Shown here: in pieces, positions 18,316 to 22,194 of the stretch
Layout of the letters: every line of letters starts with the position of its first letter
How positions within the stretch are numbered: the stretch's first letter is position 1
Assembly (NCBI GenBank): GCA_965215565.1
Contig: CBDCDZ010000004.1
Location: forward strand, 192,001-256,000
DNA from: Trueperaceae bacterium
Lineage (GTDB): Bacteria > Deinococcota > Deinococci > Deinococcales > Trueperaceae
DNA: 64,000 bases
Direction: 5' to 3'
Notes under the pieces: generated by a model
What the model was told of the DNA's origin: nothing
Database searches by the model: none
Seen by the model: the letters and a program-made list of their open reading frames with translations, nothing else
Position numbers and translations under genes: made by a program

Positions 18316-18339
18316 TAAATTGCTGGGTATAGCTGGTAT

Positions 18340-18493
18340 TAGCAGGTACCATCTGGTCAGAGTGTACGTAAGTTTGTCCCGGAGGGAAACTTCGTAAGCG
18401 AAGCAACACTCGCACTTTGTGAAACGATGTCGAGCACGCACTTTAAGGGATGATACTTGCGTTCAATTGTCTCAGTGTGTCGTGGAACTGCTA
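18340..18493 (+). mobile_element. MITE-like element, family A
   Basis: TAGCAGGTACCATCTGGTCAG...GTGGAACTGCTA. Confidence 0.7.
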
Positions 18494-18598
18494 TATTATC
18501 CGTGCTCCAAATGTTTTGAGCCGCTCGAGCCAATGATAGCAACCTGAGCCGCCAGTTTGAAATGTGAAAAATTTACAGCTATCCGCTATAGTGGGCGC

Positions 18599-20998
18599 AT
18601 GAAGCTCTTAGCCCTGGGGGGGCTTCGCCTCGAAGACAGTGACTTCTCGCGGGTCAAGCCGCTCTTGCTGTTGGCGTATCTCGCCCTGGAAGGTCCAAAG
18701 GAGCGGCGCTACTTAGCCGAACTCTTCTGGCCCGGCGCGAGCAGCCACCTCAACAGCCTCTCGGCGGCGCTGAGTCGTCTCCGCAAGGGCGCACCCGGCG
18801 CGTTAGAAGCCGACGAACTGCGCGTGTGGCCCGCCTTCTTTTCGGACGTAGCGGACCTCTTGGGGGCGTTAGAGCGTGGCGACGCAGAGCGGGCGTTGAC
18901 GCTCTACACGGGCGCGTTCTTGGAGGGCGTCTACCTCTCCGACTGGAGCCCCGAGCTAGAGGAGTGGGTCTACGCTTCGAGAGAAGACCTCGCGGCGAGG
19001 GTCCAACACGCCGCCCTGCGTCTAGCCGAAAGTGACGCCGCTCAGGGGCGTTTTGCCGACGCCGCGCACCGCGCCGAACGTGCCTTTACGCTCCCCGGCG
19101 CGCCCGAGAGTGAGCCCGAAGACCTGAGCCGCTTCTACCTCCTCTTACAAGCGGCCGGTCACCCCTCAGCTGCGCACCTCAGAGCGGAGGCGCAGGGGTA
19201 CGCCGTCACCCTCGAGTTTTCACCACGCGAAGCGCAAGCAAGGCTCCAGCGCGTGCTCGTCGGACGTGAGAGCGAAGCGGCGCGGCTCCTGACCCTGGCA
19301 CCGGGCGAATCCGCCTGGGTCTGCGGCGGCGCGGGCATGGGCAAGACGGCGCTCTTAAAGAGCGTTCAGGGAACCTATCTCCCCGGACGCTCGCTCTTGC
19401 CCTACGCAACGTTGGAGCCGCTCGCTGGAGCCGCCTTGCAAGAGGGCGAAGGCGCGGTGCTGCAAGCCCTCGCCAAGCTGGAGGGCTTTTGGCTCATCGA
19501 CAACTGGGAGAACGTAGACGCCGCCAGCCAAGTCCTCCTGCGCAAGCTCCATGACCTTCGCCCCAGAGCGCGTCTCGTCATCGCCTCGCGCGAGAATCCA
19601 CCTTTCGGGGTGGACATGCGGCTCGAGCTTTCCCCCCTCTCCGAACGCGATTTAGCAAGGTATACTGGCGCGTGGGAACGTACCCAAGGCGTCCCCGCGC
19701 TAGTCGAAGCCTTCTTGCGCGGCGAAGCGCCTGAAAAAGCGTTGGAGGCGCAACTCGCCGCCCTACCCACAATTGCCGAAGAGGTCTACTTAGCCCTCGC
19801 CCTCCTAGACGACGCCGACCCCGACACCGCGCTCGTGCGCCGCGCTCTGTCGCTCAACGCGCAAGAGATGGCGCGAGCCCTAGAGTCCTTGCTCGCCGCC
19901 GGTCTCGTCGAGCCCTCGGGCAAGGTGCGCGTGCGCCGCGTCGCGTTAGAACTTTTAGAGGCGCATCCCACCCGCTTGGGTCCTCTGTCGCTCCAACTCG
20001 CCCGCTGCTTGTCGGGCGTCGAGGCGTTTCCACTCTACGAACGCTCGAGACCTCTTTGGGCGCAAGAGGATGAAGCCAATGTTGTCGGCGCGTACCTCGC
20101 CTGGGCGGAGGAGTTGCTGCGCCGCGGCTTTCCGCAGCGCGCCTTCGAAACCCTAGAAGACGCGCCCGACACGCGCCCCGTGACCTTTTTGAAAGGGCGC
20201 GCCCTAGAGCGCTCTGGGCGCTATCAAGAAGCGTTCGCCTGCGTCCAAAGTCTCGCTGAAACGCCCGAAGTGCTAGCGCTCAGGGCGACGCTTCACTACC
20301 GCTTAGGTCATCCGAAAGAGGCGAAGCGCGCGGCGGAAATTGCCTTAAAAGGGAGTATCGAGGCGCGTGCGGAGGGGCAGAATGTGCTGGGAAATGTAGC
20401 CTATTCAGAGGGTCAATATACTGAATCGGCAAAACTGTTTCGCAGAGCAGCGGCGTTGTGGTTAGCTGTGGGACAGAAAGTAAGGTGGGTAGGTGCGCTC
20501 AACAACGCCGCAGTAGCGCGGAGTGATGCGGGTGAAGACGCTGAACAAGCGTATCAAGAAGCATTGGTGGCGGCAGGTGCAAATCAGGTATTACGTACTA
20601 TGGTGCTTACTAATCTCGGGTGCGTTTACGAAGATCGAGGCGAGTTCGGTAAAGCTATAAAGACATACGAAGACGTGATTACTTCAGCTAACGAAATTAG
20701 AGCTACCGTAGCTTTAGCGACAGCTTGGAACAACATAGGTGATTGTTATAAAGAAGATAAACCCGAAAAGGCTGTAGAAGCCTATAAGCAGGCATACGAG
20801 TTTGCTCAAGAAGCGGGAGACTCTTATATTATTGCCACAACGCTTGCTAACCTAGCAGAGGTCAGTAATGATTTTGAAGCTTGGCAAGAAGCTATGTACC
20901 TCTTTGAAGTAACTGGACACTCAGATCAAATAAGGCAGCACCGAACTCAACTCCCCGAAAGTCACCTGTTCAGGGTGCGGTCAGGGGTAAACGTTTAG
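18599..20998 (+). CDS. SARP/AfsR-like transcriptional regulator: wHTH + BTAD + P-loop NTPase + TPR repeats
   Basis: LLLAYLAL..RRYLAELFWP..LSAALSRLRK; YTGAFLEG..LEEWV; Walker A GGAGMGKT; Walker B FWLIDN; Asn-containing TPRs; start ATG 18599. Confidence 0.88.
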   Translation: MKLLALGGLRLEDSDFSRVKPLLLLAYLALEGPKERRYLAELFWPGASSHLNSLSAALSRLRKGAPGALEADELRVWPAFFSDVADLLGALERGDAERALTLYTGAFLEGVYLSDWSPELEEWVYASREDLAARVQHAALRLAESDAAQGRFADAAHRAERAFTLPGAPESEPEDLSRFYLLLQAAGHPSAAHLRAEAQGYAVTLEFSPREAQARLQRVLVGRESEAARLLTLAPGESAWVCGGAGMGKTALLKSVQGTYLPGRSLLPYATLEPLAGAALQEGEGAVLQALAKLEGFWLIDNWENVDAASQVLLRKLHDLRPRARLVIASRENPPFGVDMRLELSPLSERDLARYTGAWERTQGVPALVEAFLRGEAPEKALEAQLAALPTIAEEVYLALALLDDADPDTALVRRALSLNAQEMARALESLLAAGLVEPSGKVRVRRVALELLEAHPTRLGPLSLQLARCLSGVEAFPLYERSRPLWAQEDEANVVGAYLAWAEELLRRGFPQRAFETLEDAPDTRPVTFLKGRALERSGRYQEAFACVQSLAETPEVLALRATLHYRLGHPKEAKRAAEIALKGSIEARAEGQNVLGNVAYSEGQYTESAKLFRRAAALWLAVGQKVRWVGALNNAAVARSDAGEDAEQAYQEALVAAGANQVLRTMVLTNLGCVYEDRGEFGKAIKTYEDVITSANEIRATVALATAWNNIGDCYKEDKPEKAVEAYKQAYEFAQEAGDSYIIATTLANLAEVSNDFEAWQEAMYLFEVTGHSDQIRQHRTQLPESHLFRVRSGVNV

Positions 20999-21001
20999 TC
21001 T
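20970..21001 (+). promoter_or_regulatory. SARP-type promoter: TCAGGGT-N4-TCAGGGG-N8-TAGTCT
   Basis: Heptamer direct repeats with 11-bp period, 8 bp before a TAnnnT box; lies in the last codons of the regulator. Confidence 0.65.
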
Positions 21002-21068
21002 ATTTTTGAAGGAGATACTTTCGTATAAGCCGAAGATATTTCGCTCTAAAAATAAAAGGAGATCGGAC

Positions 21069-21224
21069 ATGAGTGACAGAAGTGATGAGGAAAAGAAAAA
21101 AGACAGCCCCAAAGAGGTGAGCGACTTTCTCAAACAACAGAAGAAAGGTTCACGCAACCCTTCAAAGGATGAAGATGCGAAAGATCAGGGCAATGACACA
21201 GATGGGATAAAAATAAGGGACTAA
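21069..21224 (+). CDS. 51-aa highly charged microprotein of unknown function
   Basis: Strong SD AAAGGAGA before ATG; followed by an intrinsic terminator. Confidence 0.7.
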   Translation: MSDRSDEEKKKDSPKEVSDFLKQQKKGSRNPSKDEDAKDQGNDTDGIKIRD

Positions 21225-21259
21225 GCGAACGGCGTGAAGTGACCTAAATTTTTATTAGC

Positions 21260-21295
21260 GAAAAGCGGTGCAAAAGTGATTTTGCACCGCTTTTC
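21260..21295. terminator. Bidirectional intrinsic terminator
   Basis: GAAAAGCGGTGCAAAA-gtga-TTTTGCACCGCTTTTC between convergent genes. Confidence 0.9.
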
Positions 21296-21318
21296 AACAC
21301 CAGTTCAAACCCTCAAGC

Positions 21319-22194
21319 CTACCCCCCACGCTTCTCAAACAGCGGAATAATATCCTCTAAAAAACGATTGAACGCCTCATTAAGCTGTTCAATATGTTCC
21401 GGCATCGCCTCGTCGAAGCTGTCCTCGCAACCTTGTAAGTAGAGGGCGCGGTTGACCTCTAGCGAGAAGCCGGGTTTATGATGCGCGAAGACGGGGTTGC
21501 TGTAGCGGCGCTGGATGTCCGCCATCGAAAAGGGCGAGTTGAGGAGGGCGCGGGGCGGTACGTTGGGGCAGACTTTCATCACATCGGCGAAGTGATGCTC
21601 GAGCCTCTCGGTAAGTACGTGCGCGGTCTCCGCGTCCACGCTGGTGTACGCCCCCGGTGTTTTTGGTTTACCCATTTCGTCGCCGCCGGTGATTAAAGTG
21701 AGCGCCGGACGCAGCTCGCCGGTGTCCGGTCCGATGGCGGGTCCGACGGGTGCCATCGCGTGGCCGTCTACGAAAAAGAGGATGTCGTCGCGCTCTAGGG
21801 CGTGCTCTATCGCCTTGTGAAAGGGGTCCCAGTAGGTTTCTAAGCGGGCTTCGGCGGCTTCTTGGCTGAGGTGATAGTCTTTGGGGTAGAGAGGTTCGGC
21901 GCTGAAGTCGGTGAGCTTGATGACGCCGTTCGCGCCGCCCTCGTCGCGCCGCCGGTTATAGTCCACCACAAAGCGCGACGCCGCCGCGTTGAAGTGCAGC
22001 GCCCCCTCCGCTTGGAAAATCTGATCGGTGTAGGGGTCGCCCTCGAAGAAAAGGCGCTTCAAGAACCGCTCGCGCAAACCTTTATCACTCGCTCTGTCGC
22101 CCAGCATTTCGGACAAAATGTCATTGGGGACGAAGCCGGAGGAGTGCGGGGTGGAGATGAGTACGGGGAGGTGTTTGATCGCAACGTCGAACAT
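21319..22194 (-). CDS. N-formylglutamate amidohydrolase family protein
   Basis: LISTPHS, DPYTD, SRFVVDYNR, YWDPFH, VDGHAM, LEVNRALY. Confidence 0.88.
   Translation of the reverse strand: MFDVAIKHLPVLISTPHSSGFVPNDILSEMLGDRASDKGLRERFLKRLFFEGDPYTDQIFQAEGALHFNAAASRFVVDYNRRRDEGGANGVIKLTDFSAEPLYPKDYHLSQEAAEARLETYWDPFHKAIEHALERDDILFFVDGHAMAPVGPAIGPDTGELRPALTLITGGDEMGKPKTPGAYTSVDAETAHVLTERLEHHFADVMKVCPNVPPRALLNSPFSMADIQRRYSNPVFAHHKPGFSLEVNRALYLQGCEDSFDEAMPEHIEQLNEAFNRFLEDIIPLFEKRGG

Follow-up and report, generated by a model that had tools for sequence, protein, structure and literature searches.

Tetratricopeptide repeat (TPR) receptors that adjoin a small peptide gene are known from the RRNPP pairs Rap-Phr, NprR-NprX and PlcR-PapR, and the peptide gene of Rap-Phr pairs often has its promoter inside the receptor gene. 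The locus considered here occupies positions 18,599 to 21,295 of a 64,000-nucleotide stretch of DNA (hereafter, the window) from a Trueperaceae bacterium of the Deinococcota (assembly GCA_965215565.1, contig CBDCDZ010000004.1, positions 192,001 to 256,000 of the forward strand), and places a gene for a microprotein of 51 amino acids (aa) behind the gene for a SARP-STAND-TPR regulator. An earlier note, made from the sequence alone, had described it as a self-contained module of the AfsR-AfsS kind. In that closest described system, AfsS carries 2–5 short repeats, binds AfsR through them (with a Kd of 4.7 uM in one species) and raises AfsR promoter binding, as reported in PMC10832544. According to PMC10936776, SARP promoters follow a geometry of direct repeats with an 11-bp period and a 3' repeat at a distance of about 8 bp to the -10 element, and ATP-dependent release of autoinhibition has been shown, among the systems compared here, for AfsR only. 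Helix 3 of AfsR is reported to read the TCA of site A (PMC11301090).

Our analysis indicates that the module most likely works like AfsR-AfsS, with a regulator that is SARP and STAND by fold and a peptide that is not an AfsS homologue by sequence. The two systems share a SARP fold, NOD and TPR parts, two 11-bp repeats over the -35 region with the core GTTCAG, and a small gene directly downstream. The analogy is closer than the earlier note had it, as AfsS binds AfsR via short repeats (PMC10832544) and the orthologous peptide in the nearest syntenic genome has four of them. The window nonetheless differs in several respects: it lies in another phylum, its SARP domain is only about 21% identical to that of AfsR, its regulator has 799 rather than about 980 aa, its box lies inside the coding tail of the regulator, and its peptide has no detected sequence link to any family. 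In addition, the slot behind the regulator is usually occupied in Deinococcota by an S8 lipoprotein, and the receptor end is exchanged together with the target, in one cassette. With STAND-TPR activators such as MalT, GutR and the archaeal 6MFV, the regulator shares Walker A and B motifs, helical and winged-helix subdomains and a TPR array, but its effector is an N-terminal SARP domain instead of a C-terminal LuxR helix-turn-helix, and its ligand would be a gene-encoded peptide instead of a sugar. As in RRNPP pairs, a TPR receptor stands beside a small peptide gene, and receptor end and peptide diverge together. The RRNPP-like character that the earlier note had raised is, however, not borne out: the peptide has no signal peptide and thus no export and re-import, and the receptor has NOD and SARP domains, which RRNPP proteins lack.

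The elements of the locus, all of which were recovered at the positions first noted (regulator, repeats, TAG stop within the -10, Shine-Dalgarno sequence and 51-aa open reading frame (ORF)), are as follows.

18564..18592, plus strand: putative promoter of the regulator, GTGAAA-17-TATAGT
18599..20998, plus strand: 799-aa SARP-STAND-TPR transcription activator, a member of a Deinococcota subfamily of about 800 aa
18599..19243, plus strand: SARP domain (winged helix-turn-helix plus BTA), residues 1-215, assigned by predicted fold and helix/box covariation, with the recognition helix at about residues 50-64 (NSLSAAL)
19325..19510, plus strand: P-loop core, from Walker A (residues 243-250) to Walker B (298-304)
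20057..20970, plus strand: TPR array, about residues 487-790, variable and exchanged beyond residue ~596
~20387..21300, plus strand: recombined cassette of distal TPRs, box and -10, peptide gene and hairpin
20968..20987, plus strand: SARP box, two direct repeats GTTCAGG and GGTCAGG with period 11, in codons of the regulator tail
20996..21001, plus strand: -10 element TAGTCT, whose first half is the regulator stop TAG
21055..21062, plus strand: Shine-Dalgarno sequence AAAGGAGA, of which AAGGAGA is retained in the syntenic orthologue
21069..21224, plus strand: charged microprotein of 51 codons, from ATG at 21069 to a TAA stop
21260..21295, no strand assigned: 16-bp hairpin with A- and T-runs, a likely bidirectional terminator
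21319-22194, minus strand: convergent formylglutamate amidohydrolase gene (FGase family)

The promoter follows the SARP geometry, with TCAGGGT at 20970-20976, TCAGGGG at 20981-20987, a period of 11 and 8 nt between the 3' repeat and TAGTCT. In the genome of the window (4.49 Mb; hereafter, G000), the pattern TCAGG-N6-TCAGG-N10-TAnnnT occurs once. As 0.10 copies are expected by chance, this is weak evidence, and the case therefore rests on relatives. We collected 66 distinct homologous 3' ends in 65 fetched loci, and TCA[GT]-N7-TCA[GT]-N11-[TC]AnnnT was present in 40 of them, as compared with 0–2 for each of 24 other period/distance pairs. A promoter score of 10 or 11 out of 11 was reached by 30/66 ends, as opposed to 1/198 gene-body windows and 0/66 reverse strands. 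By these counts, the spacing is conserved across Deinococcota homologues far beyond chance, although related loci are not independent. Where the earlier note had looked to homologues for both the repeat spacing and a small downstream gene, the former was thus found and the latter is limited to two of the 65 loci. The offset of the box to the regulator stop ranges from -32 to +56 nt in most loci, that is, from the coding tail to 56 nt behind it, and the box is therefore no by-product of the protein sequence. The stop codon forms half of the -10 in 9/66 ends, from two clades (a count that leaves out the L039 and L016 offsets). The overlap, which had been taken as a wiring feature, is thus real but, from its distribution, dispensable and incidental. 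As an ATG or GTG lies 5–7 nt after the hexamer in 36 of 48 box-bearing loci, the hexamer should act as a -10, with a predicted start near 21008.

The core of the box, GTTCAG, is identical to that of AfsR site A (-40 CGTTCAGC -33). Across the loci, recognition helix and box core form the pairs NSLSxAL with TCAG, NSLAxAL with TCAT, ASLST with TTAG (2 loci), RSNLSM with TGAG (3 loci) and LGKLSVV with TAAG; loci with some other helices, e.g. NSLKV, yielded no box in the helix/box scan. The change of core with recognition helix argues for the box as a site of the adjoining regulator itself.

For the regulator, the SARP/NTPase/TPR architecture proposed earlier is supported by structure models. The AlphaFold2 model of residues 1-215 (pLDDT 94.7) gave as top folds AfsR 8K60 and 8HVR (TM 0.66-0.69, E 2e-5 to 2e-4), followed by EmbR, while the top fold match of the whole-regulator model was the archaeal STAND-TPR 6MFV (E 1.8e-12). 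The STAND layout is present, with Walker A and B followed by helical and winged-helix subdomains and then the TPR sensor, and the Walker residues G248, K249 and D301 were found in 62/62 aligned homologues, T250 in 61/62. A Pfam scan returned TPR families alone, with no match to BTAD or Trans_reg_C at E<=0.1, a profile of 21 N-terminal domains had no match among PDB sequences, and PF03704 was carried by 1 of 120 homologues among the matches listed. The SARP assignment is thus based on predicted fold and not on Pfam, and by this fold the regulator is a divergent SARP family member. Its subfamily yielded 390 matches in the homologue search (details are from 120 listed), with titled records from Trueperaceae, Meiothermus, Calidithermus and Deinococcus, and its C-terminal part is present in 30/128 family genomes at E<=1e-25. 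A paralogue at G000:C4:120409-122622 matches residues 1-523, with a hydrophobic, probably membrane-spanning C-terminus in place of the distal TPRs. The ATG of the regulator sits 6 nt 3' of the -10 TATAGT, so the start matches the leaderless layout that is common in Deinococcota, as described in PMC12340547, and is inferred to be of that type.

The small gene has one known orthologue, at the syntenic locus of a related genome, G001. Its product is charged and poor in hydrophobic residues, as the earlier note had seen (13 K+R, 14 D+E and 7/51 hydrophobic), and no export signal or hydrophobic stretch was found in it. The conserved parts are DFLKQxKK, PSK, KDQ and a C-terminal DGIxxRD (21201-21221). 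Between G000 and G001, the gene differs by in-frame indels of 12 and 42 nt and by its stop (TAA/TGA), retaining Shine-Dalgarno sequence and start, and over 47 hand-paired codons the proportion of synonymous differences (pS) is 0.97, against 0.26 for nonsynonymous ones (pN). The G001 peptide ends in four DGINKR units, which show 24 nucleotide differences over 6 pairs and no residue change; the window peptide has one intact unit (DGIKIRD) preceded by one degenerate copy. From these substitution patterns, the 51-codon gene is under purifying selection, and the earlier claim that it is a real gene holds. Searches found no homologue of the peptide but itself, including among 1.84 billion representatives, no usable match in the ESM Atlas and no match in Pfam/NCBIfam, and the DGIxxRD-stop pattern occurred in 128 family genomes only in G000 and G001, plus one non-stop match. 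No homology to AfsS was found in the family and sequence searches, in which AfsS itself was not directly aligned. A 72-aa ORF from TTG 21006 was discarded as its frame is not retained in the orthologue, and a structured 5' untranslated region was likewise rejected (z -0.03 and -0.93).

It could be argued that loss of an S8 gene left the small ORF behind as a decaying remnant, with a vestigial promoter, as S8 is present here in the four nearest relatives apart from the pair and the peptide lacks homologues among those representatives. We regard this as extremely improbable: frame, Shine-Dalgarno sequence, stop and promoter are retained while synonymous sites are saturated, and the peptides match a profile of 46 S8 junctions no better than their own shuffles (91/187 and 142/188 shuffles score as high), so that an S8-junction relic was rejected.

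The G000 and G001 regulators are 90–93% identical up to residue 590, with pS 0.32–0.41, and 73% and 66% identical past it, with pS 0.73 and 0.82. The changepoint falls at codon 596 (~20387), none of 300 permutations being as strong, and identity recovers after ~21300. DNA identity to the closest relative is 0.61–0.75 inside this block versus 0.77–0.97 in flanking coding bins, synonymous sites inside it are near saturation, and GC content at third codon positions (GC3) in the window changes from ~0.75 to 0.4. The closest relatives also differ: for residues 1–590, they are P0002 (91%), P0004 (90%) and P0003 (84%), and for residues 591–790, P0003 (76%), P0002 (70%) and P0004 (59%). Within the family, variability is highest in the distal TPRs (column identity 0.38–0.43 versus 0.47–0.64). 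Because of the changepoint, the shared block and the differing closest relatives, we conclude from the alignments that distal TPRs, promoter and peptide gene are one recombined cassette that moved together. Such block exchange of sensor end, switch and tiny gene suggests a receptor and its matching peptide. Contigs from two runs of one sample are identical to 20419-21289 and 20369-21433; this is probably the source sample and not independent support. One contig of low depth in runs X1/X2 matches the two ends of the distal TPR part (within 20419-20924) around a middle that has diverged, and a second one matches box and -10 alone (20971-21006), its flanks being unrelated; these hint weakly at a further allele and a further target in the sample.

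We propose an AfsR-AfsS-like autoregulatory loop in Trueperaceae, in which the peptide would bind the distal TPRs and keep the regulator active, a reading that we place at roughly even probability. The regulator would be made from a leaderless mRNA and, judging from AfsR and STAND biology, would be kept in an autoinhibited resting state by its NOD/TPR part. In the active form, two SARP domains would lie side by side on the TCAG repeats covering -35 and recruit housekeeping RNA polymerase to the -10, a step that is very probable, its architecture being taken from conservation and the binding being inferred. The resulting transcript, of ~290 nt from ~21008, would yield a disordered, cytoplasmic 51-aa protein, whose translation we expect with high confidence in view of the selection on the gene. 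The C-terminal DGIxxRD motif would, with somewhat better than even probability, bind the distal TPRs of its own regulator, and the bound peptide would most likely hold the regulator active in positive feedback, as AfsS does for AfsR. Transcription reading through from the regulator promoter could seed this feedback, as the two genes are not separated by a terminator, and exchange of receptor end, promoter and ligand gene as one cassette would keep the pair matched. The active regulator would also drive other boxes, such as those before a leaderless second SARP gene and a conserved 62-aa ORF.

The cassette bears on two other roles for the peptide. It might be an effector acting downstream, whose partner would be another TPR sensor, RNA polymerase or a protease and never its activator, which we find unlikely. 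The slot holds a secreted protease in 46/65 loci, which is an output rather than an obvious ligand, several other TPR sensors are present in the genome, and AfsS may have further partners (PMC10832544). The breakpoint, however, lies inside the TPR array, with the ligand-facing half travelling with the peptide gene, and repeats whose differences are all synonymous agree with a motif that binds a repeat receptor. The same cassette evidence would suit a peptide that binds the distal TPRs and inhibits, that is, a negative-feedback anti-activator giving a pulse response. PMC10936776 reports that TPR/NOD parts inhibit the AfsR SARP domain, a state that a ligand could lock, but also that the STAND sensors MalT and GutR are turned on by inducer binding, and AfsS, the one tested analogue, raises AfsR promoter binding (PMC10832544); inhibition is thus decidedly unlikely in our estimate.

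The tandem hexapeptides of the G001 orthologue, with their KR pair, raise a further alternative, namely a multi-core precursor from which a protease acting in trans frees DGIxxR/GIxxRD units, to be exported along a non-Sec route as a cell-to-cell signal. The regulator family is tied to S8 proteases, orthologous regulators of genus g35 are followed by signal-peptide ORFs, and a signal-peptide ORF elsewhere in G000 ends in two short repeat units (both described below). The peptide itself, however, has no signal peptide, the window copy has no KR pair, the syntenic neighbourhood contains no protease, exporter or modifying enzyme of ribosomally synthesized and post-translationally modified peptides, and no orthologue of the cognate S8 was found in G000 with six queries (best 25–37% identity). 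We therefore consider a precursor very unlikely.

Several points weigh against the proposed loop and should be considered when referring to it. Adjacent DNA co-transfers in any recombination tract, which is no proof of binding, and as a lower 3' GC3 is common in the family (44/53), GC alone proves no exchange. The window peptide has one intact and one degenerate motif and no repeat array, and just two peptide sequences are known, too few for residue-level covariation with the TPRs. A complex prediction with TPR residues 487-799 and a two-row peptide alignment (first row, the G001 peptide) scored 0.02, which speaks neither for nor against binding. We found no mapping of the AfsS-binding domain of AfsR in the account of PMC10832544. 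If transcription starts at 21008, the first-repeat TCA is placed at -38, as against -37 in afsS, a shift of one base away from the start. The distant boxes could be shared with, or belong to, paralogous SARPs of the genome, and strong sites are only slightly in excess genome-wide (6 versus 0–2).

A weight matrix built without this locus ranks the window box first in the genome, at 30.8 bits, and finds six sites above 20 bits, as compared with 0–2 when the spacing is shifted. One box lies 6 nt before the leaderless second SARP-type gene and is conserved in G000 and in a further relative, G002. Matching boxes elsewhere suggest a small regulon, and the module, which the earlier note had called self-contained, is thus probably not so, with conserved boxes before other genes. 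Another conserved box precedes the conserved 62-aa ORF, a candidate second small target (G000:C4:1194324-1194356, L231; G002:C4:163590, L229). At G000:C4 ~982404-982532 (minus strand; L222), a 42-aa signal-peptide ORF ending in two GFKISN units lies behind 11-bp-phased GGCAACC repeats and TAGACT, and resembles a second gene for a peptide signal, controlled by a different activator; the tail of its G002 orthologue (L234) differs.

In the relatives, the next gene carries the S8 catalytic motif in 46 of the 65 loci, several of the other 19 ending at a contig edge, and Pfam found S8 and a weak TIG in 3/3 tested slot proteins. By this census, the usual target of the family is an S8 protease lipoprotein and the small gene is lineage-specific. 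In a quick IQ-TREE tree (54 rows, full-length proteins only), small-peptide genes replace S8 twice (2 changes, forced by the starred branches), with the cytoplasmic form nested among four S8 loci. In genus g35 (L219, L220, L221), where the helix of the orthologous regulators is changed and the boxes read TGGTGAG, one or two signal-peptide ORFs of 58–66 aa come next, which carry two cysteines and are Gly-rich at the end. Related ~730-aa regulators at L244 and L248 precede secreted proteins with long P-D/N-R/K-P repeat tracts, those of L248 behind GTTAAG boxes. At 32/48 box-bearing loci, a leaderless M-P ORF opens 5–7 nt after the -10 (e.g. L098:6462-6680, L062:6449-6706, L084:6395-6610). Most of these have a conserved head of ~17 residues, ending in EV(x)D and containing the Shine-Dalgarno sequence of the S8 gene, and extend 57–99 codons in another frame across the S8 start. 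None is present in the window, Pfam gave no match for 6/6, and a translational control element is possible.

The S8 slot leads to a wider and more doubtful reading, in which Deinococcota SARP-STAND-TPR loci would be swappable receptor-ligand ('pherotype') cassettes, the slot ligand being the self-cleavage junction of an S8 lipoprotein at most loci, a secreted pre-peptide in g35 and a cytoplasmic repeat microprotein in the window. Among S8 loci whose regulators are at least 72% identical, in pairs that are mostly from Meiothermus and not independent, the correlation with the distal TPRs is low for junction identity (rho 0.29) and higher for the whole N-terminal part of the S8 protein and for its prodomain (0.71 and 0.68, against 0.32 and 0.22 with residues 1-590). 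The junction as ligand of the distal TPRs is thus only weakly indicated. G000 also has four S8 lipoproteins (C4, near 3639292, 942140, 1215329 and 4208698) with tandem repeats of 7–8 residues (W-S/A-G) at the prodomain/catalytic junction, each adjoining a probable TPR-GGDEF, TPR-HD-GYP or TPR-CHAT gene by sequence reading rather than Pfam scan.

The hairpin at 21260-21295 is strong (-27.7 kcal/mol, z -3.8) and retained in the closest relative (z -4.8), which upholds part of the earlier description as a strong terminator. Against this, its U-run is just 4 long, the terminator scan omitted it, and it probably also serves the convergent FGase gene. The module is flanked by a methyltransferase-fold gene and the FGase gene, in a housekeeping block syntenic with G001. 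Upstream of the regulator, at ~18335-18500, lies a dispersed intergenic repeat with up to ~87 overlapping genome matches (137 BLAST pieces), similar to repetitive extragenic palindromic (REP) sequences or miniature inverted-repeat transposable elements (MITE).

Three findings are new by these comparisons: the distal TPRs have recombined together with promoter and peptide gene as a single cassette, the usual target of the family, an S8 lipoprotein, is twice replaced by small-peptide genes, and further boxes of this type in the genome point to a small regulon. We found no literature on SARP/AfsR in Deinococcus, Thermus or Chloroflexi among open-licence papers, and the design of an activator plus a microprotein is known so far mainly from antibiotic-making Streptomyces. 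Whether the TPR sensor of AfsR-type regulators has any ligand is stated to be open in PMC10936776, and the role of the AfsS repeats to be unclear in PMC10832544. The locus offers a minimal test case, namely a sensor end of 200 residues in two natural alleles, either of which comes with a 7-residue motif of its own, and the five helix/box pairs provide a DNA-recognition code for the Deinococcota SARP subfamily. It also points to a candidate family of protease-linked signalling systems, among whose members are cultured species of Meiothermus, Calidithermus and Deinococcus. If true, the pherotype reading would join AfsS-type microproteins and protease-derived peptides in one signalling principle, and would identify the kind of ligand long sought for AfsR-type TPR sensors.

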